From Enterobacteria phage IME_EC2, in the sequence record NC_047742.1: DNA of 41,510 nucleotides; one strand, 5' to 3'. The translations under genes were made by a program, and so were the position numbers. The notes under the pieces were generated by a model. It did not search any database, was not told the DNA's origin, and saw nothing but the letters and a program-made list of their open reading frames with translations. Below, piece by piece: positions 59-40,980 of the stretch (position 1 is its first letter; the number at the start of each line of letters is the position of its first letter).

Positions 59-103
59 ATAGCACGAATTGCTAAAAGCGATTTATCAAATGTTGTTATA
101 GTT
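59..103 (+). promoter_or_regulatory. Promoter-like cassette copy 1: dyad ATAGCACGAATTGCTAAAA, 22-bp spacer, TATAGT
   Basis: Read directly; same dyad recurs 6 times, always upstream of the first ORF of a gene block and in the same orientation relative to it. Confidence 0.5.
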
Positions 104-148
104 CTTTCACCGGGCGGCAATGGGTCGCCCACTACCGGAGAGATAACG

Positions 149-438: not shown

Positions 439-816
439 ATGTCGAAAGTCACAGTAGTAACACGCTGGCCCACAGTAGCCGACGCACAGCAGGACGCGGA
501 GCGCGTGGCCTCACTCATTCGCGCACAGTCCAGCGTCCAGTCCATGCCGATCCGCGTTAACACATACCAGCGCGAGGAGAAGCTGGGCGGCGGGTTCGGC
601 TACGTGCTGGAATGCGGTCCAGTCTCGATCGTCTGCCGTAGCATCACCCGTTACACGGCTTGTTATTCGCTGCCGGAAGGTCCACGCGGGAACCATCGCG
701 ACGAGTTCGAAGCGGTCACGGCGGAGGCTGCGATCGAGGAGATGCGGGAATTTCTGGAGAGCCGGATCAAACACGCCCGCCTCGCGCTGGCTGTCCTGTC
801 CGGTCCTGCGGGATGA
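439..816 (+). CDS. hypothetical protein (125 aa)
   Basis: ORF track; ATG 15 nt after CCCAGGAG; stop overlaps next start (ATGA). Confidence 0.6.
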   Translation: MSKVTVVTRWPTVADAQQDAERVASLIRAQSSVQSMPIRVNTYQREEKLGGGFGYVLECGPVSIVCRSITRYTACYSLPEGPRGNHRDEFEAVTAEAAIEEMREFLESRIKHARLALAVLSGPAG

Positions 817-1049
817 TCCCGGAGAAGGTCCAGCGGAAGGCCGACGAGATTCTGGCCCGCTACTACGCGAAGGAGATCGCGCCTAAGCGGTTGAAGGGGT
901 TCGGCAAGGTATCAGCGTTCAACGTGGGCTATAGCTGGCGGCTCGTGACGTGGGACGAGGGGGAGACGTGGGATCTACTGTCCCACGAGGAGTACAACAA
1001 CAAAACGCGGGGCCGTCGTCAGCGGCTCCAGGTCAAAGGCAAGAGGTAA
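813..1049 (+). CDS. hypothetical protein (78 aa, basic)
   Basis: In-frame ATG inside ORF 660..1049 overlapping upstream stop as ATGA, suggesting translational coupling. Confidence 0.5.
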   Translation: MIPEKVQRKADEILARYYAKEIAPKRLKGFGKVSAFNVGYSWRLVTWDEGETWDLLSHEEYNNKTRGRRQRLQVKGKR

Positions 1050-2284: not shown

Positions 2285-2802
2285 TCGCCGCCCTCCGGTT
2301 GTTCCTCTCGACTCACTGGCGATCGCTGCTGCTCGTCGTTGTCGTGCTGCTGGCGCTGGGGGGATCTTTCTGGGCTGGCTCGGCCTGGACGGACCGGGGC
2401 TGGACCGCTCGCGACAATGCCAGGATCGCGAAGGAATCCACCCAGGAAGCGAACGCACAAGCCGCCGCCCGTATCATTGAACAAGGCCGGGCCATTGCCC
2501 GCGAGGAGTCCGTAAAATATGCGAACGAACAAGCCGCAAAAGCTCGCGCCGCTGCTGCTACTGCTGGCGCTTCCCTTGATCGGTTGCTCGAACGAGCCGC
2601 AAAGGAAGCCGCACGACGCGACGCCGCTGATCAGACCGCTGCCCTCGGAAGGGCGTCAGGGGAAAAGACCGCCAGAATGTACGCCGACCTGTTACGACGG
2701 ACTGGCGAAGTCGCTGGACGGTATGCTGATATAGCGGAGAAGGCGATCACCGCCGGGGAGGTATGCGAAAGGAATTACGACGCCGTGGAGCGTCAGCAAT
2801 AA
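2281..2802 (+). CDS. Rz: i-spanin (Rz-like)
   Basis: N-terminal TM anchor then Ala/Arg/Glu-rich coiled-coil-like periplasmic region; follows endolysin with ATGA overlap; contains embedded +1-frame lipoprotein ORF. Confidence 0.8.
   Translation: MIAALRLFLSTHWRSLLLVVVVLLALGGSFWAGSAWTDRGWTARDNARIAKESTQEANAQAAARIIEQGRAIAREESVKYANEQAAKARAAAATAGASLDRLLERAAKEAARRDAADQTAALGRASGEKTARMYADLLRRTGEVAGRYADIAEKAITAGEVCERNYDAVERQQ
2519..2734 (+). CDS. Rz1: o-spanin (Rz1-like lipoprotein) embedded in Rz
   Basis: Signal peptide with lipobox LIGC, proline-rich mature part, fully inside Rz in the +1 frame. Confidence 0.75.
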   Translation: MRTNKPQKLAPLLLLLALPLIGCSNEPQRKPHDATPLIRPLPSEGRQGKRPPECTPTCYDGLAKSLDGMLI

Positions 2803-3718: not shown

Positions 3719-3817
3719 GAGTACCATCGACACGCCGAAACCGATTAAAGCCCACAGCGCGGCGCTTGCTGCGATTACGCCCCATATAACGTATTTGTGT
3801 CCGCGTAAGTTGTTCAT
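3716..3817 (-). CDS. small hydrophobic protein (33 aa, one TM)
   Basis: ATG with strong SD (AGAGGGGAA), overlaps upstream stop as ATGA; short, so uncertain. Confidence 0.45.
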   Translation of the reverse strand: MNNLRGHKYVIWGVIAASAALWALIGFGVSMVL

Positions 3818-4206
3818 GCGATTTTCCCCTCTTTCTTGAATTTTGCCAGGCGTCCGCGAATTGAAGGACGCGATTTGTTGAGCCAGTTCGCGACGTGCGC
3901 GTGAGTGAGTTCGGTCGGCACTATCACCCGGCGACCAGTGGCGATCACCAGTTCGTCCAGATCCTCGTCGGTCAGAAGTCCCTCCCAGAAGCGGACCAGC
4001 TTCCGGTCCTCCTCCGTCGTCCATTGCGTGTACGTCCGGTTATACGCCAGGGAGAGGCCCAGCTTAGAGGCCCGGACCTGCATCTGGCGGAAGTTGCGAC
4101 CGATGCGCTTCGCCAGTTCGTGCGGCGGCATGGTCGCGGCGAGGCGGGTCAGTTCCGCGTCCTGCTCGTCAGTCCACCCGATAATCTGCGCTGTTACTTT
4201 ACCCAC
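3814..4206 (-). CDS. putative DNA-binding protein with two GcrA/Myb-like WT-x-EED repeats
   Basis: GTG start with AGGAGG 7 nt upstream; GWTDEQDAEL...ASKLGLS and QWTTEEDRKL repeats resemble the GcrA N-terminal domain. Confidence 0.55.
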   Translation of the reverse strand: MGKVTAQIIGWTDEQDAELTRLAATMPPHELAKRIGRNFRQMQVRASKLGLSLAYNRTYTQWTTEEDRKLVRFWEGLLTDEDLDELVIATGRRVIVPTELTHAHVANWLNKSRPSIRGRLAKFKKEGKIA

Positions 4207-4477
4207 GAGATCCTCCTTTGAGGTGCTTCCGGTTTTTGGTTGAGTCCAGCGCCCGCTTAAGGTCGCCCTTCTCGCTTTTGGTTCCCGGCACGACTCGGAA
4301 GTGGTGCGGGTCTGGTTGGTTCAGGTACATCTCGCCGTCCGGCGTCTCGATCGATATGTCGGCGATCGCCTCCTTGCCGAACACGCGAGAGACTGCGCTG
4401 ATCATGCCGTCCAGTTCGGCGGCTTGCGCCGCCTCCCACAGTTCCCGGCGCGTTGCCTTAGTGGGCCGGGTAGCCAT
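4199..4477 (-). CDS. hypothetical protein (92 aa)
   Basis: ORF track; tightly packed in minus-strand operon. Confidence 0.5.
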   Translation of the reverse strand: MATRPTKATRRELWEAAQAAELDGMISAVSRVFGKEAIADISIETPDGEMYLNQPDPHHFRVVPGTKSEKGDLKRALDSTKNRKHLKGGSRG

Positions 4478-4685
4478 ACGCCCCCCGGATAAGTTCGCGG
4501 GCGTCGTTCTCCGCCTGGACCGCTTCGCGGGTAAGTGCTGCCTTTGCCAGTGGCCCCGCCGCGTACATCTTGAGGCGGTTGCGGAGGATCATCGCTGTCT
4601 CGATCAGGATATGCGCCTGTTTCAGTAACAGCGGGTTCACGATCTGAGCCTTGTTTGTTTTGGTGTGGAGTAATGTCTGTTTCAT
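4458..4685 (-). CDS. hypothetical protein (75 aa)
   Basis: ORF 4458..4748 trimmed to ATG (MKQTLL) with GAGGA upstream; first gene after promoter copy 2. Confidence 0.5.
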   Translation of the reverse strand: MKQTLLHTKTNKAQIVNPLLLKQAHILIETAMILRNRLKMYAAGPLAKAALTREAVQAENDARELIRGAYGYPAH

Positions 4686-4740
4686 TGCTTCGTCCTCGTG
4701 TTGGTGTGAAAGAATAATAACAAAGGATAAGCGGCATTGC

Positions 4741-4758
4741 TTTAGCAAAAAGTGCTAT
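4741..4758 (-). promoter_or_regulatory. Promoter-like dyad copy 2 (ATAGCACTTTTTGCTAAA on minus strand), -10-like TATTAT 22-23 bp downstream
   Basis: Read directly; lies between a terminator and the next minus-strand gene. Confidence 0.5.
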
Positions 4759-4787: not shown

Positions 4788-5528
4788 TCAGAATGGAGCG
4801 TTTTCGATGTAGACCGCGACGGCGAAGCCTTCGGGCGTGGCGCTTCGGATGTTCTTCGTTCGTGTGCTGGATCCGCCCAGTCTCGACCAGCCCGGATTAT
4901 CCTTAACAGCCGGGACGCTCTGGAATGCCGGGAAGCGGAAGCCGCCACCGCACCAGATCCCCGTCTGCTTCGGGTACGCGTCCCGCGCCGGATAGATCTC
5001 CGGGTAGAGGCTATGCTGGTGATCCTCCGGCAAGTAGCCGCCGAAGTTGTAGGGGTGGAACCAGTGATCGCAAGGTCGCCACATCGTGGAGAGCCGGGAG
5101 ATCTTCGGATTCTCCAGCATCCAGGGGACCAGCGTTTTGTCCTCATAGTCGCCGTTTTCGTACCCGGCAAACGTAGCCACCTGCTCGACCATCTTCGCCA
5201 GCGCGACGGCCTTCTCCTGGAAGCGTGGATCCTTCTTGCGCTTCGCTTCCCACCATCTGGCCCCGGTACAGGTTAGATCGGTGCATTCAGCAAAGGAGGC
5301 CACGAAGATCACGCCCGGCCCGACTTCATCGGCGATTCTGAGCGCTTCTACTTCCGTGTTGTCTGCGTCGAACATCCGGCCCACACGGATCAGGTTCGGC
5401 TCGTCGGCGTCTGGGTGGATCCCTGGCTCGTGCTGCCCGTCATACATCCAGCATTCCACGCCAGCCTCCAGCCACTTGTCCACCATGATCCGGGTCAGGT
5501 TAAACAGGAAAATCGCCTTATGCTTCAC
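4788..5528 (-). CDS. hypothetical protein (246 aa) in Dam/clamp-like operon
   Basis: ORF 4788..5561 trimmed to GTG (VKHKAIF) with AGGA upstream; start is uncertain (an ATG 14 codons downstream is an alternative); no family recognised. Confidence 0.55.
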   Translation of the reverse strand: MKHKAIFLFNLTRIMVDKWLEAGVECWMYDGQHEPGIHPDADEPNLIRVGRMFDADNTEVEALRIADEVGPGVIFVASFAECTDLTCTGARWWEAKRKKDPRFQEKAVALAKMVEQVATFAGYENGDYEDKTLVPWMLENPKISRLSTMWRPCDHWFHPYNFGGYLPEDHQHSLYPEIYPARDAYPKQTGIWCGGGFRFPAFQSVPAVKDNPGWSRLGGSSTRTKNIRSATPEGFAVAVYIENAPF

Positions 5529-5751
5529 GGTTCTGATCCTTCTCGTACTCGTCGGCGTCACGCTTGATCAGCGCGTCCCACTGGTCCATATGTACCGGGT
5601 TATAGTCCTGCTCGAAAGAGAGATCGAGCGCCTCGGCGAAGTGCTCGGCCTCCTCACGGGAGGCCACCAGCTTACGCGCCATTAACTCGTCCGCGACCTT
5701 CTCCTGGAAGATGGCCCAGCGGCTATTAGTGTGACCGTCGTTATATTTCAT
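5518..5751 (-). CDS. hypothetical protein (77 aa, acidic)
   Basis: ORF track. Confidence 0.5.
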   Translation of the reverse strand: MKYNDGHTNSRWAIFQEKVADELMARKLVASREEAEHFAEALDLSFEQDYNPVHMDQWDALIKRDADEYEKDQNREA

Positions 5752-6352: not shown

Positions 6353-6994
6353 TTAAATCATCGTTTTGCCTTCGAACATCATTTCCGCCTGGGTCAGATA
6401 TTCAGTCTTGATCGGTCCGCGCTTCTTCGGCTTGATAACGAACATCACGGACGGCTTGCTGTTTTTCTTGCCCGCGACTTCGGTCCCTGCCTTCACGAAC
6501 GCCACGCGCCCGGAGTTCTCTCCGTCGCTGGTGATGTGAATTACCAGGCTCCCGGCGTCCAGCGCCTTCTTAAACCACGCCGTGGACGCGTCGGAGTTCA
6601 GGAGGAAAACGGTCGTAACGTCGCGATCCTTCGCTTGCTGGATGGCCTTCACGATCCACGGAAGCGGCTCGGCGTAAGGAGGATTGCACCAGGCCAGCCC
6701 GCCCTCCGCGCCCCAGTCTACGCCGTCCTTGAGGGCGTCCGTTTTCTCGTCCAGATAGACGTCACAAAGCGCGTTTGCTTTCTCCGCTGCGACGTCGATC
6801 CCGAACTGCCCGAAGCGCTTCACAGCCCAGTCGAACAGCCAGCGCGGGGTCTGCCACTTCTGACGGATAGCGTCCGGCGTCTTGGACTTGTTGAAGCGGC
6901 GACCGCTAACAGTGGTCACGTCTGCCGCTGCGCGTTCCGCTTCGGTCATGCCGTCCACATGGTCGATCGTGGTGGTGTCTTTCTCGTCTTTCAT
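6353..6994 (-). CDS. phage N6-adenine DNA methyltransferase (Dam family)
   Basis: WQTPRWLFDW near N-terminus and catalytic-type motif NPPY (LAWCNPPYAE), typical of phage N6A-MTases. Confidence 0.8.
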   Translation of the reverse strand: MKDEKDTTTIDHVDGMTEAERAAADVTTVSGRRFNKSKTPDAIRQKWQTPRWLFDWAVKRFGQFGIDVAAEKANALCDVYLDEKTDALKDGVDWGAEGGLAWCNPPYAEPLPWIVKAIQQAKDRDVTTVFLLNSDASTAWFKKALDAGSLVIHITSDGENSGRVAFVKAGTEVAGKKNSKPSVMFVIKPKKRGPIKTEYLTQAEMMFEGKTMI

Positions 6995-7049
6995 CTGCTG
7001 CCCTTTTTTGGTTGGTGGTGACTAACGATAATTGATTAACTGTTTTGTG

Positions 7050-7068
7050 TTTTAGCAAAAAGTGCTAT
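7050..7068 (-). promoter_or_regulatory. Promoter-like dyad copy 3 (ATAGCACTTTTTGCTAAAA on minus strand), TATCGT 22 bp downstream
   Basis: Read directly; about 58 bp upstream of the Dam start codon. Confidence 0.5.
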
Positions 7069-7151: not shown

Positions 7152-7968
7152 ACCCGAACGCCCCCGCAAGATGCCCGCCGACGCATGGCCTCCCCGTCCT
7201 CTCGTAGCCGTACAGGAAAACCTCGTCCGGGTCAGTGTAGACGAACCGGATCTCCCGATCGCCATCGTAGATCGCCGACGCCTGGATCGCGTTCATAGGC
7301 CGGAACGTCAGCCAGACCTCCGCCTCCCCTCGCGCCGCCACGTTCACGGCATGGACCGGATCCGCCACCAGATACACCGGAGCGTCCGGCGCTGGGTGGA
7401 TCAGCCCTACCGCGCCCCACGTCGGGCCACCAGCGGCAAACACCACAGACCTGTCGGAGCCGATCTTCGCCACGTTGCACCACGGCCCCAGCGATCCCCC
7501 CAGTGGACGAGCGCATGGAACATACAGGAAGCCGTCGCGCATTGCGCCTTTGCTCATGACCTTTTCCACGTCCTCCGGGGTCAGCTCCCAGTCCTGCGCG
7601 GGCTTGTCCTGCTGGCGGGCATACTTGCGGGCCTCTTTGACGATCGTTTCCCGCTTCTCCGGGGTGAGTCCGCCTATCCAGTCGCCCAGGTCGTTGATCG
7701 CTTCGTTGAATGGCTGCGATCTGCTGGTCATAAACCAAAACATGCCATCACGAGCGCCACCGCACGAGCCGGAACAGTACCCGAAGCCCTCGGCCTTCTT
7801 CGTCTGCTGCTTATGGCCCCAGCGAAAGCGATCCGTCCCGCCGCATATCGGGCAAGGCTGGTGATTGCCGTTAAACGCCTTGCGGTCCCAGCCGCACAGA
7901 TCGAGGAGCGCCTGTTCCCACTTGCCGGGCATCGCGGCGAGAACGTCCTCTTTTTTATAAATTGCCAT
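7150..7968 (-). CDS. putative DNA primase (P4-type Zn-ribbon plus TOPRIM-like region)
   Basis: HQPCPICGGTDRFRW zinc-binding motif typical of phage/plasmid primases; AGGAGG SD. Confidence 0.55.
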   Translation of the reverse strand: MAIYKKEDVLAAMPGKWEQALLDLCGWDRKAFNGNHQPCPICGGTDRFRWGHKQQTKKAEGFGYCSGSCGGARDGMFWFMTSRSQPFNEAINDLGDWIGGLTPEKRETIVKEARKYARQQDKPAQDWELTPEDVEKVMSKGAMRDGFLYVPCARPLGGSLGPWCNVAKIGSDRSVVFAAGGPTWGAVGLIHPAPDAPVYLVADPVHAVNVAARGEAEVWLTFRPMNAIQASAIYDGDREIRFVYTDPDEVFLYGYERTGRPCVGGHLAGAFG

Positions 7969-8030
7969 CTTGCCCTCCTGAGTTTTCCCGGTTACTATAA
8001 ATCACGCTTTAATGATATTACAAGGAATAA

Positions 8031-10073
8031 ATGGAAATGGTCGAGACATTAGAAAGGCAGATCGCGGCCCTCGATCGCGACGCCATTCTCCGCGCCCTCG
8101 GTGATATGCCCGTAACGCCATACGATCACCAGTTCGTCGCATATGAGGCTTGCGCGAAGGCTATCCGTAAATATCCGGGGCCTGTCATTGTGGACGCCGC
8201 CGTGAGCGCCGGGAAAACCATCATGATCTCCATGCTGGCCCGCCGGATCAGGGATATGGGATTCCCCGCCATGATCCTGTCCCGCCAGGGTGAGATCATC
8301 GATCAGGACTTCGAGGAGTTGCGGAACTTCGGCGTAAACTCCTCGATCTACTGCGCCAGCTTAGGCCGCAAGTCTGCACACTTCCCGATCGTCGTCGGCT
8401 CCGAGGGTACAGTGATCGGAGGGATCCGCCCAGGCCAGCCCCTCGCCCATTACGCGCCGTTGTTCCTGCTGATCGATGAATGCCATCACGTCAACATTGA
8501 GGACCTGATCCGCTCGGAGGAGCGCGTGGTCCCGGAGTACCTGCGGGACGATAACGGGACCGTTATCCTCGACGGCTTCGGGGATCCGACCATTATCGGC
8601 GAGCATAAGGGCGAGACATACGAGGAGATGATCGAGGCGGGTCGCTCCAGTTATACGATCATCATCCGAACGTTACAGGCCCGCGCCCGGTCAGTGTACG
8701 GGAAGGAACTCCGCATTATCGGCTACACTGGGACGCCTTACAGGGGCGTGGAGTCCATCATCCAGCCAGACCTCGAACAGCCCGGATTCTGGCGTGAAAA
8801 GGTCTGCGAGATCTCGACGGAATACCTCGTCAGCGTTGGCGCTGTCGTTCCGACTCACTTCGGGATCTCCAATCTCCACTACAACCTCGACCAGTGGCGA
8901 TCGACGGGTGAGGACGGCATTAAGGAGTTCACGGACTCCGACATGGACGCCATGCAAAAGGCGATCCTGAAAGAGAAAAAGCTCACTCATGAGATCATGG
9001 CGGAGGTCTACGCCATCGCCCAGCACAGGAACGGCGTGTTAGTGACGTGTGCGGGCGTGAGACACTGCAAACAGGCGGCGGAGGCCCTTCCCCCTGGTAC
9101 GCCTTACGCCATCATTACGGACGACACGACGGGCAAGAAGCGCATGGACATTTTGCGCCGCGCCAATACCGGGGAGATCAAGTTCATTTTCCAGGTTAAC
9201 GCCCTAACGACTGGCGTTAACGTCCCGTTCTGGGACACGTCCGTGATCCTGCGGAAGATCGGCTCCCTCACGCTCCTAACCCAGCTTTTAGGCCGTGGGA
9301 TGCGAATCCTTAAGCCGTTCCACATCGCCGCCGGGGTGACGAAAGAGGATCACCTGGTTCTCGACTACGCCGGGACGCTGGACGAACTCGGATCCCTGTA
9401 CTTCTCCCCGCTGCTGGAGGCATATCAGCACAGCGCCGACGAGAGCAAAGGAGAATTAGAGTTAGACTGTCCGAAGTGTCGCAAGGCGGGCCATCCTACG
9501 CTCAACGGCAAACACGCCCGACGCTGCCGCTACGTGGACGAGAACGGCGATCGCTGCGAACACTTTTTCCAGTTCATCACCTGCGACGACTGGAAGGACG
9601 CCAGCGGGCGGAAAGTGGTCCAAAAGGGATGCGGGGCGCAAAACGACATAGTAGCCAGGATCTGCCGCTGCTGCGGGAACTCGCTCGTAGATCCGAACAA
9701 GAACTTAAGCCGGACCACGTACAGCCGCGACGACTACGCGACCGTGAGAGGGTTCAGAATTGAATTAGCGCGAGGGACTGGGGGGATCGCCTTCCGGTAC
9801 GAACTGGAGAAGGACGGGGACCAGTTTGTGGCCTGGCAAGTATTTTGGCCCGGTAGCGACTCGCCAGCGGCGAAAAAGGAATGGGTCCATAATGGCATCC
9901 TTAAGCACGTCCTGGACGGCAAAATGAGGGCCACGATCAAGAAATGCCGGACGCCCCAGCAGGTATTAGAGTTCGCCCCGTACTTCATGGCCCCGCTTAA
10001 GGTCAGCCACCGGAAGATCGGCAAGGGTAAAGACGTTATCACTAACAAAATTTTCATGAATGAGGAGTTTTAA
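8031..10073 (+). CDS. SF2 DNA helicase (DExH box) with C-terminal Cys-rich zinc-finger region
   Basis: Motif I AAVSAGKT, motif II DECHH, motif VI QLLGRGMR; C-terminal CPKC...CRY...C...CRCC. Confidence 0.8.
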   Translation: MEMVETLERQIAALDRDAILRALGDMPVTPYDHQFVAYEACAKAIRKYPGPVIVDAAVSAGKTIMISMLARRIRDMGFPAMILSRQGEIIDQDFEELRNFGVNSSIYCASLGRKSAHFPIVVGSEGTVIGGIRPGQPLAHYAPLFLLIDECHHVNIEDLIRSEERVVPEYLRDDNGTVILDGFGDPTIIGEHKGETYEEMIEAGRSSYTIIIRTLQARARSVYGKELRIIGYTGTPYRGVESIIQPDLEQPGFWREKVCEISTEYLVSVGAVVPTHFGISNLHYNLDQWRSTGEDGIKEFTDSDMDAMQKAILKEKKLTHEIMAEVYAIAQHRNGVLVTCAGVRHCKQAAEALPPGTPYAIITDDTTGKKRMDILRRANTGEIKFIFQVNALTTGVNVPFWDTSVILRKIGSLTLLTQLLGRGMRILKPFHIAAGVTKEDHLVLDYAGTLDELGSLYFSPLLEAYQHSADESKGELELDCPKCRKAGHPTLNGKHARRCRYVDENGDRCEHFFQFITCDDWKDASGRKVVQKGCGAQNDIVARICRCCGNSLVDPNKNLSRTTYSRDDYATVRGFRIELARGTGGIAFRYELEKDGDQFVAWQVFWPGSDSPAAKKEWVHNGILKHVLDGKMRATIKKCRTPQQVLEFAPYFMAPLKVSHRKIGKGKDVITNKIFMNEEF

Positions 10074-10541: not shown

Positions 10542-10580
10542 TTTAATCTTTCTCACACCAACAACGTGAGAGAGAACAAA

Positions 10581-13444: not shown

Positions 13445-13663
13445 ATGGCAACATTAAAGCCCGTTTGCCTCGTGAAGCAGGTCCGAGAGGCGAAAGGCAT
13501 CCAGCAAAAAGATCTGGCGGAACGCGTAGGCATGATCGCCCACCAGTTGAGCCGATACGAGAACGGGCACGAGTTGCCACATATTACTAACCTCTGCCGA
13601 CTCGCTGCCGCCCTGGACGTGTCGATCGCAGACCTGATCGAGTATGGAGTGAATCATGATTAA
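13445..13663 (+). CDS. XRE-family HTH transcriptional regulator (Cro/CI-like)
   Basis: KGIQQKDLAERVGMIAHQLSRYENG HTH signature; second ATG chosen because AAGGAG lies 6 nt upstream (ORF track start 13430 is an alternative). Confidence 0.75.
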   Translation: MATLKPVCLVKQVREAKGIQQKDLAERVGMIAHQLSRYENGHELPHITNLCRLAAALDVSIADLIEYGVNHD

Positions 13664-13940
13664 GTCCGGCCTTAGCTTTAGCGAAGCTCTGATCGCAGTG
13701 AAGGAAGGTTATAAAATTGCCCGCGCTGGATGGAATGGCGCTAATCAATTCGTGATCAAGGCTGGCGGGTATACCGTAAACGAGCCGCGACCGGGTAGTG
13801 ATTATGCAAAGGCCGGGATCACTGGCGAATTTACGATCGCCCCGCATCTTGATCTTAAAAATGCGCAAGGCGTAATGCAACCGGGTTGGGTCCCATCACA
13901 GGGCGACCTGTTCGCCAATGACTGGACGATCTTACGCTGA
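13656..13940 (+). CDS. DUF2829-like protein (Tad2-type fold candidate)
   Basis: FSEALIAVKEGYKIARAGWNG near N-terminus and C-terminal DLFANDWTIL resemble the DUF2829 pattern; overlaps HTH stop. Confidence 0.5.
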   Translation: MIKSGLSFSEALIAVKEGYKIARAGWNGANQFVIKAGGYTVNEPRPGSDYAKAGITGEFTIAPHLDLKNAQGVMQPGWVPSQGDLFANDWTILR

Positions 13941-22448: not shown

Positions 22449-22463
22449 GATCCCCCCAGTGGA

Positions 22464-27473: not shown

Positions 27474-27740
27474 TTATTTCGTGGCGGCTCTTACGACCTG
27501 CTGGGAGAGGTAGAGCGCCTCGTGATGCGGTGGAACCGAAGCGGGGATCACGTAGTACAGCGCGACGTCTCCCCCGTCCTTCTCGAAGCCGTGGATCCTC
27601 TCACTGGCTACGATTCGCCAGCGGTTCCCCTCTGGCCCGGTCAGGAAGCCGTCCAGGTCGTGGAGTTCCGTCTCCACCTGGGCCAGCTTCGCGAGGGATG
27701 CGACTCCCCCGCTCGGAAAGGCTAAATAGTGATGTTTCAT
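27474..27740 (-). CDS. hypothetical protein (88 aa)
   Basis: ORF track; ATGA overlap with upstream gene. Confidence 0.5.
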   Translation of the reverse strand: MKHHYLAFPSGGVASLAKLAQVETELHDLDGFLTGPEGNRWRIVASERIHGFEKDGGDVALYYVIPASVPPHHEALYLSQQVVRAATK

Positions 27741-28173
27741 ACGATCTCGGCGTCCTCCACGTCGTCGTCTTTGCGCGGGTTGACTTCTTTCGCGCTGTCG
27801 GCTGCTGCCACGTAGTCGCCCTCGATCGGGCCTTTGTAGGTCAGTTGTTTGATGCTCGCGATATCGGCGAGGAGTTTCTGTTCCTGCATGTAGAAGTTAG
27901 CGCGGAGTGACTGGAGGCCAGTCTCCAGCAGTGGGAGAGCCAGTTCCGCGATGCGCTCGGCGGTCGGCTCGGTGTAGACGATCTCGATCTCACGAGTTTC
28001 TAACAGGACCATAGCCGGGTCCGTGTTGTCCTTGATGTGCTTCTCCACGCTGTACAGGTCGCCCAGGTCGTGGTCGGAGACGTAAGTCTCCCCGCGCTTG
28101 TAGAAGCTGGAGCGTGTACCGTCCGCGACGCACAGGCAAATGAATTGTTTTTGATGTAAGTTTTAGTAGTCAT
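27737..28173 (-). CDS. hypothetical protein, apparent frame change near 28140 (A5 run)
   Basis: ATG at 28173 with SD opens a frame (MTTKTYIKN) that turns junk-like; the -1 frame is protein-like and continues into ORF 27737..28048, which has no good start of its own. Confidence 0.4.
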
Positions 28174-28248
28174 TTTGTAGTCTCTCTGGTCAGTGGCGGG
28201 GACCATTCCCCGCCGACACAATCAATATAACATTTGATAATCTGGGCG

Positions 28249-28267
28249 TTTTAGCAATTCGTGCTAT
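28249..28267 (-). promoter_or_regulatory. Promoter-like dyad copy 4 (ATAGCACGAATTGCTAAAA on minus strand), TATATT 22 bp downstream
   Basis: Read directly; followed by conserved leader hairpin GGCGGGG-AATGGT-CCCCGCC and SD. Confidence 0.5.
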
Positions 28268-28680: not shown

Positions 28681-28898
28681 GCGTAAGCCCCTTCGAATTG
28701 TGCGATCGACATTGGCGAGTAATACAGATTTAACTCGTACCCACAGATCCGCCCGTCTGGGCCGTTGATCGGCTCGCGGACTTTGACCTCCACGCGGCGC
28801 TCGTTGTCCGGGAACTCCGTCACGCTCACGATGTTACGGACCGGGAGGAGATACTTTTCCCCGGCGGCGTCTTTGACTGCTATCAGTGATCGGGCCAT
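28677..28898 (-). CDS. hypothetical protein (73 aa)
   Basis: ORF track; ATGA overlap with next gene. Confidence 0.5.
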   Translation of the reverse strand: MARSLIAVKDAAGEKYLLPVRNIVSVTEFPDNERRVEVKVREPINGPDGRICGYELNLYYSPMSIAQFEGAYA

Positions 28899-28993
28899 TC
28901 AAAACTCCTTTGTAATGGTTTAGTGATGTGTCGAGGCAAAGAATAGCCCGGACTTGCCGGGCTTGTCTTTAGCTTTTCGTGCGGTCCGACCAG

Positions 28994-35939: not shown

Positions 35940-36140
35940 TTAAAAGCCGTCGTAGTAGCCAGGCAGTGCGCGGAGAGCCGCTTCGTCGTCGATCAGGTCC
36001 CACTCGGTCGGCTCAATGTCTGCCGCCTCTGCCATCTCGTGGGCGATGATACCAGCCACCAGCGGGGAGACGTTGCCCGTCGCTTTCTGGCGCTCGATCT
36101 CTGCCTGAATATCTGCGAGTGTATCGGATAATGATTTCAT
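35940..36140 (-). CDS. hypothetical protein (66 aa, acidic)
   Basis: ATG with GGGAGA SD; first gene after promoter cassette copy 5. Confidence 0.55.
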   Translation of the reverse strand: MKSLSDTLADIQAEIERQKATGNVSPLVAGIIAHEMAEAADIEPTEWDLIDDEAALRALPGYYDGF

Positions 36141-36211
36141 GATGTTCTCCCGGTCAGTGGCGGGACCATTTCCCGCCGTCAGAAGAACTATAACAACATT
36201 TGATAAGTGCG

Positions 36212-36230
36212 TTTTAGCAATTCGTGCTAT
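36212..36230 (-). promoter_or_regulatory. Promoter-like dyad copy 5 (ATAGCACGAATTGCTAAAA on minus strand), TATAGT 22 bp downstream
   Basis: Read directly; flanking about 90 bp nearly identical to copy 1 (inverted) and copy 4. Confidence 0.5.
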
Positions 36231-37127: not shown

Positions 37128-37170
37128 TGGATCCTCCCAGGATGCCCGGCTCTCGACCGGGCGGTGGTTG

Positions 37171-37389
37171 TCAGATGTTCGCGGCGATGAATGCCAGGAC
37201 TTCGCGGAGGTGCTTCTCGTCGCGGATAGTGGCTGGCAATTCCTCTTTCACGCTGCTGTCGAGGTAGATATTGCCATTCCATGTATAAGAGCCGTTAGGG
37301 TTGACCAGATAGGAGAACATCCACTCACAATCATTGTCAGCTTCCCACACGCACAGCAGGATCTTTCCGTCGTCGTTGATATCTTCCAT
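37171..37389 (-). CDS. hypothetical protein (72 aa)
   Basis: ORF track; preferred over overlapping low-complexity ORF 37248..37511. Confidence 0.5.
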   Translation of the reverse strand: MEDINDDGKILLCVWEADNDCEWMFSYLVNPNGSYTWNGNIYLDSSVKEELPATIRDEKHLREVLAFIAANI

Positions 37390-37518
37390 CGTAACGTCCA
37401 GGCCGCGCTTAACTGCGTATTTTTGGTGGTTGCGTTGACTGCTGTCATGGTCTTGCCCTCTGAGTTGGTGGGCGTCTCGTCGCCCGGTGAAAACATATTA
37501 TCAATTATCACCGGGGAC

Positions 37519-37537
37519 GTTTTAGCAATTCGTGCTA
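37519..37537 (-). promoter_or_regulatory. Promoter-like dyad copy 6 (ATAGCACGAATTGCTAAAA on minus strand), TAATAT 22 bp downstream
   Basis: Read directly; overlaps the stop of the upstream small ORF. Confidence 0.5.
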
Positions 37538-37717
37538 TTTATCCTTTCTCATTCGACGGAGTGATCGGACCAGATCGACGACGGCCCAGCCAGACGCCAG
37601 CAGGAACGGCGCGAGGACCGCCAGCTTTTCCCAGTTGGTCAGGATCGCGTCGGTCCCTCTGGTCATGCCGATCCAGGCTATCACCAGGACCTCGTAAGCG
37701 AAGGCGAGCCAGATCAT
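37535..37717 (-). CDS. small membrane protein (60 aa)
   Basis: Two hydrophobic segments; ORF track. Confidence 0.45.
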   Translation of the reverse strand: MIWLAFAYEVLVIAWIGMTRGTDAILTNWEKLAVLAPFLLASGWAVVDLVRSLRRMRKDK

Positions 37718-37947
37718 TTCCCCAGCCTCACCTTGCGGACGATCGTAGCTGCGGTGTCGTAGGCGTCGCGCTGCCGGGGTGAGACGCTGCTCTCCCGGAG
37801 TTCGACCAGACCACGCTCCAGGACTTCCAGCGCGGCCCAGCGCCCGGACAAGTCCATGATCACCTCCTCGGCGTCGCGGTCGATCTTGCCTGGCGGGTGT
37901 CCCTCCGCCATCAGCTTGATCTCCTCGGTGGTCATTGGCTTACGCAT
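37714..37947 (-). CDS. hypothetical protein (77 aa)
   Basis: ORF track; ATGA overlap. Confidence 0.5.
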   Translation of the reverse strand: MRKPMTTEEIKLMAEGHPPGKIDRDAEEVIMDLSGRWAALEVLERGLVELRESSVSPRQRDAYDTAATIVRKVRLGK

Positions 37948-38848: not shown

Positions 38849-40396
38849 TCATTTTTTGGTCGCATGTTCGAAGGCGTGGAAAAAGTCCGTCCGCTTAATC
38901 GGCGGCTCTGCGAAGTTGCGGAAGTGATCGGATAACATGCCTTTGGTCAGCTTCGGCAAGCGGTAGCCCTTGTCCTTGCGCTGCTGCGAGTATTCCACGA
39001 CGTAGGCCAGCAGTCGGATCGCCTGTTCCTCCTTCTTGCTGCGCTTGCGCGTGTCCTCCGGCTTCTCGCCCTCGTCCTTCTCGGCTGGCACTGCCTCCAG
39101 CGCGTTAATGACGACCAGCGTCCCCAGGTTGTCGCCGATCTCCCACGCCGCCGGGTTGGCCTTCGCCTCCGGGCGTACAGGCTGCATCCTCGCCAGCGCC
39201 TCGCGCTTCATCTTCACCAGGTCAGGCGGTAACTTCGCGGACTTCGTGCGCATGGCTCGCGCCGGGAGAAGCGCACAGCCTTTGGCCTTCGTGTGCTCAA
39301 TCACAAAAAGCTCTTTGTCCTTGCACTTCTTCACCATGATCTCGAATCCGGCGTTTGCCCTGAGCGTTGACGCGCCACGAGCGCCGCGCTCGGTGTCCTT
39401 CCCGGTGTGGTGGATGATCATCACGGCACAGTTAAGCCATTCAGCCAGTAACGCCGCGTTACGCATCAGGATCGCCGCCACGTTGTTGTCGTTCTCGTTG
39501 AAGTCGGTCCCGCCCTCCCAGCGGTCCGGCTCGTCGCCCTTGCCTGGGATCATGCGCTCGCCCACTTTCTGGCCCGCGCTGTTGGCGCTGTAGGTATCGA
39601 TCACGATCAGGGAAAGCGGGTTCAGGCCGAAGAATGGGGACGCCTTGATGGTTGCCGCGAACGTCTGGAGTTCGCTCTCGCGGTGTAGTGGGACCTGCTG
39701 GGACAATACCCAAAAGTTGGGTAACGGCTCGTTCTTGTTCTGCGTGTACTTCCATCCCGCGTAACGTTCACGGACGCCGCTCGCATCCTCCGGCGCGAAG
39801 TACATCACGGATCCCTGTCGGACTGGCAAGCCGCCGAAGTCGATCCCGGTGGCGACACAAATCGCCATTTGTAACGCTGCGAACGTTTTCTTTGCGCCGG
39901 ACTCGCCGACCAGGAAGCCCACGGAGCGCTCCGGGATCAGCGACTGGATCACATAGTTAACGGGCTTGATCTCGTTCGACTTGTTCAGGCTGGCGATCAG
40001 CGGGTCGTCCATTGCCTCGACCGCCAGCGCCTCGTCGATCTTCTTGCGCTGCTTCTCGCGCTGCTTCGCGAGGAGTTCCTGGCGACGTGCTTCGTCCTTC
40101 TCCTCGTCGGTGAGGTCTGACGTCTTGACGATCGTCGGCTTGTCGTTGCGGACGGTTGCCGTCCACTCTGCGGCCTCGTGCTCGTCGAAGTCGAAGAACG
40201 CCCCGGCATCCTGGGCGGATTCTGCTTCTCTCGCCGCGTACAGGCTGGCCTGTTCCTCGTAGAACTCCATAGGAGCCTCTGGCACGTCGTCAGCAGGTGG
40301 AGGCGTTACCGGGCCGGAGAACTCGCCCCGGACCATCTCGATCAGCTCCTCCTCGCTGCGCTCTGGTGTCGGCATTACTTCATCATAATCAGTCAT
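38849..40396 (-). CDS. RepA-like RecA-fold AAA ATPase (putative replicative helicase)
   Basis: Walker A GESGAKKT, Walker B-like LIVIDTYS, IIHHTGKD; acidic disordered N-terminal region. Confidence 0.7.
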   Translation of the reverse strand: MTDYDEVMPTPERSEEELIEMVRGEFSGPVTPPPADDVPEAPMEFYEEQASLYAAREAESAQDAGAFFDFDEHEAAEWTATVRNDKPTIVKTSDLTDEEKDEARRQELLAKQREKQRKKIDEALAVEAMDDPLIASLNKSNEIKPVNYVIQSLIPERSVGFLVGESGAKKTFAALQMAICVATGIDFGGLPVRQGSVMYFAPEDASGVRERYAGWKYTQNKNEPLPNFWVLSQQVPLHRESELQTFAATIKASPFFGLNPLSLIVIDTYSANSAGQKVGERMIPGKGDEPDRWEGGTDFNENDNNVAAILMRNAALLAEWLNCAVMIIHHTGKDTERGARGASTLRANAGFEIMVKKCKDKELFVIEHTKAKGCALLPARAMRTKSAKLPPDLVKMKREALARMQPVRPEAKANPAAWEIGDNLGTLVVINALEAVPAEKDEGEKPEDTRKRSKKEEQAIRLLAYVVEYSQQRKDKGYRLPKLTKGMLSDHFRNFAEPPIKRTDFFHAFEHATKK

Positions 40397-40536
40397 TGTC
40401 TTTTCCCTGCTGCGTTAATAAAGTGTTCATAACTTAACAGTGATTCATAACGCCGTCAATCCGCACCAGTAAAGAAAACTCTTTACATCACTGTTACGTC
40501 ATGTATGCTTAAAGACGAACAACAACGGAGGCGAAC

Positions 40537-40980
40537 GTGGACTTATTCAAACAGAAGCGAACTACGGCCCCGGCTACCGCCGGAGCGCCGCGCAAGACGG
40601 CGGCGGAGAAGCGCCAGGAGATACTCGACAAGATAGCGCCCACTGATCTGTCGGTGCTGGACGCTATCGACAAGGGGCTGATCGATCCGTTTGTACCCAC
40701 GGACGAGACTCGGAAGGCGTTCTCCATGCTCAAGCCGTCGGAGCAATTGTTCGCCGCGTTCTTCGAATGCCCCGGCGTTGACCAGCGGAAGCTCTCCGCG
40801 CTCTGCCGTCACACGGCAAAGATGGAACGCGCCGGACTGCTGCGTGATCTGCGCGTTGACCGTTCGAAGCTGGCCCCGCCAGTGTCGGATCCGATGGAGT
40901 TCCCCCCAGGCGTCGAGATTGGCCCGGAGTTGGCCCTCGCTGCCTTACAATGTAAACAAGCCATGAGGAAAGAGAGATGA
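40537..40980 (+). CDS. hypothetical protein (147 aa)
   Basis: GTG start with GGAGG SD; divergent from the AAA ATPase gene. Confidence 0.5.
   Translation: MDLFKQKRTTAPATAGAPRKTAAEKRQEILDKIAPTDLSVLDAIDKGLIDPFVPTDETRKAFSMLKPSEQLFAAFFECPGVDQRKLSALCRHTAKMERAGLLRDLRVDRSKLAPPVSDPMEFPPGVEIGPELALAALQCKQAMRKER

Follow-up and report, generated by a model that had tools for sequence, protein, structure and literature searches.

The DNA analysed here is the 41,510-nucleotide sequence of Enterobacteria phage IME_EC2 (NC_047742.1), referred to below as the window, and the element under study is a 20-bp box that recurs in it at seven sites, each upstream of a -10-like hexamer. The results of our analysis showed that this box is asymmetric and oriented, that it keeps a fixed geometry relative to the -10 hexamer, that it matches the consensus of the marbox, the site read by the host activators MarA, SoxS and Rob, and that it is the Murrayvirus member of the repeat of the T1 family, the function of which is left open in the only published description that we found. 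From these sequence comparisons we consider it somewhat probable that the seven sites belong to class II promoters of sigma-70 at which host Rob, MarA or SoxS is the activator.

The dyad TAGCA-N5-TGCTA was found exactly six times in the window and in 0 of 100 shuffles of it. The six copies described in an initial annotation of this DNA are real, and the positions agree within 1 nt: the 19-mer ATAGCACNNNTTGCTAAAA lies at 59-77 (+), 4740-4758 (-), 7050-7068 (-), 28249-28267 (-), 36212-36230 (-) and 37520-37538 (-) (copies 1 to 6, respectively), with GAA at the centre of four copies and TTT at the centre of two. The search of the window and of related phage genomes, which had been proposed as a check, also returned a seventh, degenerate copy, ACCGCACGAAAAGCTAAAG at 28967-28985 (-) (site 7), which is kept in 6/6 Murrayvirus genomes, and orthologues of these sites in the relatives.

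Every copy is co-oriented with its downstream gene, as had been claimed, and the box starts 73-95 nt upstream of the likely start codon. Counted from the end of the motif, the distance to the likely start codon is 54-75 nt rather than about 55-125 bp, the two larger values having arisen because of apparent frameshifts in the first downstream genes. These first genes after boxes 4 and 6 (27737-28206 (-), 156 aa, and 37171-37448 (-), 92 aa) look frameshifted when compared with their homologues in Escherichia phage sortsyn, which could reflect sequencing errors or real disruptions. The description of every copy as intergenic has to be corrected for four of the six, in which the motif contains the stop codon of the preceding gene (TAG of aTAGcac in copies 4, 5 and 6, and TAA of gcTAAaa in copy 1). 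Similarly, only one of the two copies said to follow directly after an intrinsic terminator does so, namely copy 2 (terminator 4784-4767, minus strand), while copy 3 is located 57 nt past a hairpin that has no T-tail on that strand.

The -10-like hexamers listed for the six copies (TATAGT, TATTAT, TATCGT, TATATT, TATAGT and TAATAT) are present and start 22-23 nt after TTGCTA, and 5/6 are extended -10 elements, with TGn in front of the hexamer. The spacing between the box and the hexamer is 18 bp at five sites, 19 bp at copy 2 and 20 bp at site 7, and the centre of the dyad falls at about -41/-42, in agreement with the position near -42 that had been likened to class II activator-dependent promoters, if the hexamers are the true -10 elements. 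A CA or a purine is present 7 nt downstream of the hexamers, where transcription is predicted to start. We agree that TTGCTA is too distant to be a -35 element, with a 22-bp spacer to the -10, and the other pairings (TAGCAC/TTATCA and similar) match poorly. The view that the copies are promoter-associated elements is supported; they lack a usable -35, and a generic sigma-70 scan calls none of them.

Asymmetry of the box and its fit to the marbox consensus

The motif had been interpreted as a dyad bound by a dimeric factor, and this interpretation was not upheld. When sites were chosen by the palindromic core alone (258 contexts), A1, C7 and A17A18 were found in one orientation in 231 contexts and in the other orientation in none, and this orientation agreed with the side of the -10 hexamer in 206 cases and disagreed in 25. 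Since the one-sided flanks are tied to the side of the -10, the element is intrinsically asymmetric and oriented, which argues against a symmetric dimer; neither the two-fold conservation nor the independence from orientation of a symmetric-dimer operator was found. Orthologous variants break the dyad, down to 2/5 pairs, while GCAC and AAA are never altered. Site 7 itself, with no more than 2/5 dyad pairs, is nevertheless conserved across six genomes.

The published marbox/soxbox/robbox consensus, AYnGCACnnWnnRYYAAAY, is explicitly asymmetric (PMC3709825). All seven sites match it at 13 of the 14 specified positions, the sole misfit being position 19. With at most one mismatch, the consensus gave seven sites in the window versus 0.19 expected, and these are the six copies and the degenerate site. 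The 18-mer form of the consensus, with no mismatch, gave four to seven sites in each of five fetched Murrayvirus genomes, the lowest count (four) coming from the short 38.2-kb record of sortregn, and no site in four Sortsnevirus genomes. The marbox pattern also recovered orthologues missed by the dyad, namely ATCGCACGAAAAGCTAAAA in ST231, ATCGCACGAATTGCTAAAA in Lumpael and ...TTGTTAAAA in KMB41, Lumpael and sortregn. The positions that vary among the Murrayvirus orthologues (2, 3, 8-12, 14 and 19) are either unspecified or vary within the class allowed by the consensus (Y to Y, W to W), except for position 19, which matches in no copy, and the eight exactly specified positions are invariant.

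Comparison with promoters of the host led in the same direction. The micF box of E. coli K-12, ACAGCACTGAATGTCAAAAC, is oriented forward and is followed after 18 bp by the -10 hexamer TAGAAT, with its centre at -41.5 and the annotated start 8 nt after the hexamer; it has been solved structurally as a class II complex with its site at about -41 (PMC8811837). The phage box is identical to the micF box at 14 of 20 positions, A19 and C20 included, and has the same orientation and the same spacing, apart from the slightly longer spacers of copy 2 and site 7. The marbox of marO, read in reverse complement (ATGCCACGTTTTGCTAAAT), is identical to copy 3 at 15 of 19 positions and shares with it the right half TTTTGCTAAA.

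Class II marbox promoters carry a forward box that overlaps the -35 region, without a recognisable -35 hexamer (PMC12052159, PMC6900184, PMC10268841). Each of these features was found in the window: 7/7 sites read GCAC...AAA toward the downstream gene, as in micF, the box overlaps the -35 region at the spacing of this class, and a sigma-70 -10 is present without a recognisable -35 (0/7 sites called by the sigma-70 scan). MarA recognises CGTG with its helix 3 and TTT with its helix 6, at a separation of seven bases (PMC12052159, PMC8811837, PMC6900184, PMC10268841), and the phage core CAC(G/T)-N7-AAA agrees with this spacing. The predicted-marbox 15-mers of the Grainger laboratory appear to share GCA-N5-TG-N2-AAA, in our own reading of the table, which is not a consensus given by its authors, and the phage core GCACGAATTGCTAAA has every base of it. 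Unlike host marboxes, the phage sites are many, near-identical and closer to the consensus than natural host sites are, and they are conserved at consensus-free positions as well.

The orthologous promoters of the sister genus Sortsnevirus keep the -10, the start region and the hairpin in the 5' untranslated region (UTR), and have -35-like hexamers (TTGCAT, TGGACA, TTGCGG and TTACAG) at 16-17 bp where the box would be, which supports the idea that the box substitutes for a -35. This comparison of sequences also shows that the box arrangement is not obligatory for this type of genome. Position weight matrix matches in Sortsnevirus, ATATCACGAAAnnnTTAA, were considered as a diverged form of the box and rejected, as they belong to a separate ATCAC-N6-GTGAT-type dyad that lies in canonical early promoter spacers in both genera. 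In the window, dyads of this type (ATCACGCTTTAATGAT and ATCACGAAAGAATGAT) are located upstream of 8031/7968 (about 7990-8025) and of 10584 (about 10545-10575). Conserved counterparts are present in Sortsnevirus, among them a perfect ATCACG-N4-CGTGAT, and the dyads are plausibly the operator of a 72-aa HTH_3 protein (13445-13663).

The same box in T1-like and other phages

A scan of IMG/VR for ANNGCACGAANNGCTAAA gave at least 120 stretches and, among the matches listed, nearly all came from contigs of 46-53 kb that are T1-like Drexlerviridae, such as IME347. Phage T1 has about 20 copies of the box, and identical strings are present in T1, IME347 and others. The 401 unique T1-like contexts gave the consensus aATAGCAC-GAA/TTT-TTG-C/T-TAAAAC, followed at fixed positions, numbered from the box, by TG (36-37), TATAAT (39-44) and CA (50-51), so that the T1-like architecture is the same as that of the window. 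The box also occurs in low copy and with the correct geometry in other phage contigs, and the matching records are from phages of Escherichia, Klebsiella, Shigella, Salmonella, Citrobacter and Enterobacter. The element can thus no longer be called phage-specific: the identical box, with its geometry, is a repeat of the T1-like Drexlerviridae and is found in a few other enterobacterial phage lineages as well.

The 2024 genome paper of phage TLS describes a 21-nt direct repeat, aaATAGCACnnnTTGnTAAAA, in 21 copies, notes it in T1, Rtp and Rogue1, and leaves its function open between a stoperator, an enhancer site and an UP-like element (PMC11447400). The box of the window has an identical consensus, with the same conserved ATAGCAC and TAAAA ends and a GAA/TTT (or AAA) centre, and like the TLS repeat it is oriented with transcription and located between genes, the TLS repeat at about 76 nt upstream of the start codons, which is within the range of the window. 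That description draws no link to the marbox, and our literature searches for the motif string, for a link between marboxes and phages and for transcription-start data in Drexlerviridae gave nothing beyond the TLS paper. Unlike the T1 family, the window is the genome of a P22-like podovirus with a G+C content of 59% and only seven copies of the box, and it has only a replication and recombination module in common with T1.

Two further observations were made on these repeats. A box-like string at position 40308 of T1 lies inside an unannotated open reading frame (ORF) at about 40236-40508 (+) and is probably not a promoter. In addition, an inverted repeat of variable sequence flanks the -10 in many T1-like box promoters (for example GGGGCT-atgccataat-AGCCCC), and the -10 of copy 6 in the window (region 37479-37509) is likewise enclosed by CCGGTGA...TCACCGG. 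The sequence of the T1-like stems varies while their complementarity is kept, which suggests that they may act as a DNA-level structure.

Candidate binders and rival explanations

In the mechanism that we favour, each copy would be the upstream half of a sigma-70 class II activator-dependent promoter. The asymmetric 20-bp box (A-Y-n-GCAC-nnW-nn-G-Y-T-AAA-A-C) would be located at about -50 to -31, in place of the -35 hexamer, and the -10 hexamer, usually of the extended TGn-TATAGT type, would follow 18 bp downstream. A monomer of the host MarA/SoxS/Rob family would bind the box as a forward near-consensus marbox, insert its two helix-turn-helix (HTH) units at GCAC and AAA, and recruit RNA polymerase. 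Rob would be the constitutively made candidate, and RamA could also serve in Salmonella and Klebsiella. Rob is both constitutively made and the tightest binder of the family (PMC10268841).

A phage-encoded binder was sought in several ways. No AraC-type domain was found in the 30 window proteins scanned with Pfam, which gave one HTH_3 protein (72 aa, 13445-13663) and a weak Crp-type HTH in a protein of 130 aa (3814-4206 (-)). The latter, a basic protein of PHROG_323 ('transcriptional regulator, D5-like'), combines two WT(D/T)E(Q/E)D Myb/SANT-like repeats with an HTH at its C-terminus. It is encoded behind box promoter 2, is conserved in Murrayvirus and Sortsnevirus alike and may act as a late regulator. 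Both proteins were rejected as binders of the box, as both are conserved in Sortsnevirus, which does not have it. A phmmer --max search with MarA against the six-frame ORFs of the window, nine relatives, T1 and 118 Drexlerviridae loci gave a best E value of 0.46. The only proteins common to the window and T1 were Dam, primase, helicase, a VRR-NUC-like nuclease, RecE and Erf, and the T1 regulator ST23 has no homologue in the window.

Iterative profile searches added an acidic 77-aa protein of the T1 ST19 family and a 92-aa protein. The first (5518-5751; pI 4.6) was rejected as a binder, being acidic, itself encoded behind a box promoter and a homologue of ST19, and the second (4199-4477) was rejected because it is also present in box-less Sortsnevirus. 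The protein encoded at 37714-37947 was rejected too, having no homologue in T1-like phages. Homologues of the 92-aa protein were seen in the T1 ORF that contains the box-like string mentioned above and in ORFs of 29 Drexlerviridae loci. On these searches, no phage regulator candidate appears to track the box, and a promoter dependent on host factors alone would be expected to occur, as the box does, in unrelated phage lineages with no cognate regulator.

Several points weigh against activation by a host marbox protein. The consensus-free positions A3, T11, T12, A19 and C20 are 60-95% conserved in the 401 contexts, which could mean that the binder is more specific, and not that the box has been optimised for the host protein. 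Position 19 is A or G and not Y, although micF also has an A there. In standard growth, MarA and SoxS are both under repression and Rob is for the most part aggregated (PMC10268841), while these phages were isolated on, and plaque on, K-12 (PMC7552041). In a study of 1,050 genome-wide screens that included 64 T1-like phages, rob, marA and soxS are unmentioned in the main text, a silence that could be explained by redundancy of the three factors or by basal activity of the extended -10. Moreover, the canonical early promoters would fit a switch timed by the phage equally well.

Such a switch could be operated by a phage activator, dimeric or not, which would be made from the early operons, bind the box and turn on the middle/late promoters, as do Mor/C in Mu and Ogr in P2. 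The use of canonical sigma-70 promoters for the early divergent operons and of box promoters for the rest agrees with this, as do the presence of several early proteins without known function, one of which (77 aa, 37714-37947) is Murrayvirus-specific, and the conservation of the box, which is tighter than the degenerate marbox consensus demands. However, T1-like phages have the identical box and no candidate regulator in common with the window; ST23, the HTH_3 protein and the 130-aa Myb-like protein fail for the reasons given above, and the asymmetry of the box speaks against a symmetric dimer, so that we regard a phage activator as unlikely. The box promoters resemble those of Mu (Mor/C), P2/P4 (Ogr/Delta) and the T4 middle genes (MotA/AsiA), which likewise lack a -35 and combine a good -10 with an activator site, upstream or overlapping, that marks a temporal class. 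Those systems use phage activators with dyad sites (Mor/C, Ogr) or a MotA box at -30 with sigma appropriation, whereas the site in the window is asymmetric and no homologous or analogous phage protein was found. The box could instead be read by RNA polymerase itself, as an UP-like element or a displaced -35, in which case the promoters would be constitutive, of the extended -10 kind, and independent of any activator. UP elements consist of A/T tracts, to which the invariant GCAC and the GC of the box are ill suited; the TTGCTA hexamer, as said, is too far from the -10; and the very strong conservation of an asymmetric sequence of 20 bp suggests recognition by a sequence-specific protein. These observations make this explanation quite improbable, even though the TGn of five of the six exact copies would allow them to work without a -35 and an UP-like enhancement has been raised by the TLS authors (PMC11447400).

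We attach very little probability to the two explanations that remain, a host dyad-binder such as Lrp acting on TAGCA-N5-TGCTA and a role of the repeats as stoperators or repressor operators, which would block transcription and not belong to promoters. The SELEX (systematic evolution of ligands by exponential enrichment) consensus of Lrp, YAGHAWATTWTDCTR, is matched by the TTT-type 15-mer TAGCACTTTTTGCTA at 13 of 15 positions and by the GAA type at 11 of 15, in our own count. The flanks, on the other hand, are strongly asymmetric and oriented, the dyad-breaking T14 is present in 29% of the T1-family sites, and the conserved site 7 hardly retains the dyad; a single Lrp site at -41 is also not known as a usual activating arrangement. 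The fixed 18 bp to TGnTATAAT and a CA start in the 401 contexts is a promoter geometry for which a stoperator would have no need, and these are virulent phages in whose annotations no integrase or immunity repressor module was identified, although the TLS authors suggested stoperators for repeats that are oriented with transcription and located between genes (PMC11447400).

Other identities were considered and rejected. Sigma-54 promoters have TGGCAC-N5-TTGC at -24/-12, and the likeness is superficial: the box reads TAGCAC-N3-TTGC, with AG for GG, a spacer of 3 nt and not 5, and a conserved -10 located 18 bp downstream. The consensus sequences of sigma-28, sigma-32 and sigma-E do not fit the box, nor do those of IHF and Fis.

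Activation by a host marbox protein, if true, would have consequences beyond the window. We give about even chances to the wider proposal that optimised class II marboxes drive the majority of the genes in T1-like siphoviruses and Murrayvirus podoviruses, which would depend on or gauge host Rob/MarA/SoxS. The repeats of the T1 family, for which the genome literature on that family within our reach has no explanation, would then be host-activator-dependent promoters and the main promoter class of T1-like phages, and the expression of these phages would be wired to the host response to antibiotics, oxidative stress and bile salts. With about 20 copies per T1-like genome, the box is among the most abundant regulatory sequences of enterobacterial phages, and as a host marbox it would offer a clear case of a virulent phage using a stress-response activator of the host and not its own. 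Phage expression and yield should in that case respond to salicylate, redox agents, bile salts and mar/sox/rob resistance mutations, which is relevant to phage therapy in combination with antibiotics and to the control of T1 contamination. The box would also provide a compact, portable and strong activator-dependent promoter for engineering.

Individual promoters, gene blocks and other features

The window belongs to a Murrayvirus, a lytic podovirus with P22-like structural genes, and shares 96.5% identity with Escherichia phage sortsyn across the 12 kb that were compared. The gene that precedes copy 1 crosses the end of the window, which is therefore a circularly permuted complete genome. The seven box promoters head or punctuate the non-early gene blocks. 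The early divergent operons, in contrast, have ordinary sigma-70 promoters at 40396-40537 (TTGACG-17-TAAGTT and TTTACA-16-TATGCT), and the primase/helicase region at 7968-8031 has its own canonical -35/-10 promoters.

Box 1 (ATAGCACGAATTGCTAAAAG, 20 bp, 59..78 (+)) contains at 73-75 the TAA stop of the wrap-around upstream gene. It is followed by the extended -10 TGT-TATAGT (94..102 (+)), with a predicted start at A109 and a first ATG at 149, and heads a block of small genes that, by gene mapping, enters the lysis cassette. The 40-nt UTR predicted for this promoter contains the hairpin GGGCGGC-AATGG-GTCGCCC (112..130 (+)), with -13.6 kcal/mol for the whole UTR. Box 2 (ATAGCACTTTTTGCTAAAGC, 4739..4758 (-)) adjoins the intrinsic terminator cited above; its extended -10, TGT-TATTAT (4714..4722 (-)), is the one at 19 bp, with a predicted start at A4707 and an ATG at 4685, and the block encodes small proteins, the Myb-like regulator and a decoration protein. 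Box 3 (ATAGCACTTTTTGCTAAAAC, 7049..7068 (-)) precedes the genes for Dam methylase, a RusA-like protein and Dcm methylase and has a -10 without TG, TATCGT (7025..7030 (-)), a predicted start near 7018-7019 and an ATG at 6994.

Boxes 6, 5, 7 and 4 punctuate a 26-kb leftward unit that holds the terminase, portal, head, tail and tailspike genes, and boxes 4, 5 and 6 share the sequence ATAGCACGAATTGCTAAAAC, with the TAG stop of the upstream gene inside. Box 6 (37519..37538 (-)) follows an early gene; the inverted repeat CCGGTGA/TCACCGG surrounds its extended -10, TGA-TAATAT (37495..37503 (-)), the start is predicted at A37488 and the ATG is at 37448, with a UTR hairpin at 37470-37485 (-). Box 5 (36211..36230 (-)), the copy within the positions to which the initial annotation was attached, heads the block that reaches the terminase and portal genes and has the extended -10 TGT-TATAGT (36187..36195 (-)), a predicted start at G36180, a UTR hairpin at 36177-36159 (-) (GGCGGGA-AATGG-TCCCGCC, as folded) and an ATG at 36140. 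The degenerate box 7 (ACCGCACGAAAAGCTAAAGA, 28966..28985 (-)) lies just past the portal gene and keeps all the marbox positions with its 2/5 dyad pairs. Its -10, TATTCT (28940..28945 (-)), is the one at 20 bp, a hairpin (28963-28945) is located in the spacer, the start is predicted at about 28933 and the ATG is at 28898. Box 4 (28248..28267 (-)) heads the scaffold, capsid and tail block; its extended -10 is TGT-TATATT (28224..28232 (-)), with a predicted start at G28217, a UTR hairpin at 28214-28195 and a likely ATG at 28173.

The UTR hairpins of box promoters 1, 4, 5 and 6 are GC-rich, have AATGG-like loops, begin 3 nt past the predicted starts and are of about -14 kcal/mol, and the promoter UTR hairpin is also present in the Sortsne orthologue. 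A scan of the window with Rfam, these hairpins included, gave no match. They could stabilise the mRNA or serve as antitermination or processing elements.

Other features of the window were recorded in passing. The 11-mer CTGGGNGGATC, which contains a GATC site, occurs in 20 copies on both strands, mostly inside genes, versus 0.13 expected; examples are at 2356-2366 (+), 7493-7503 (-), 22449-22459 (-) and 37130-37140 (-). There are 12-21 copies of it per Murrayvirus/Sortsnevirus genome and none in T1 or in a 14.4-kb stretch of IME347. Intercistronic GC hairpins without T-tails, followed by ATCCnCCCAGGAG and a start codon, precede the ATGs at 439, 12947, 34934 and 36846, and this hairpin-ATCCnCCCAGGAG junction cassette overlaps the CTGGGNGGATC motif family. 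A ParE-like toxin-domain protein (813-1049 (+), E = 5e-18) is encoded in the block before the lysis genes. Finally, a Tad2-like anti-Thoeris protein (13656-13940 (+), Pfam E = 2e-22) was found, among the relatives compared, only in this phage and in sortsyn.

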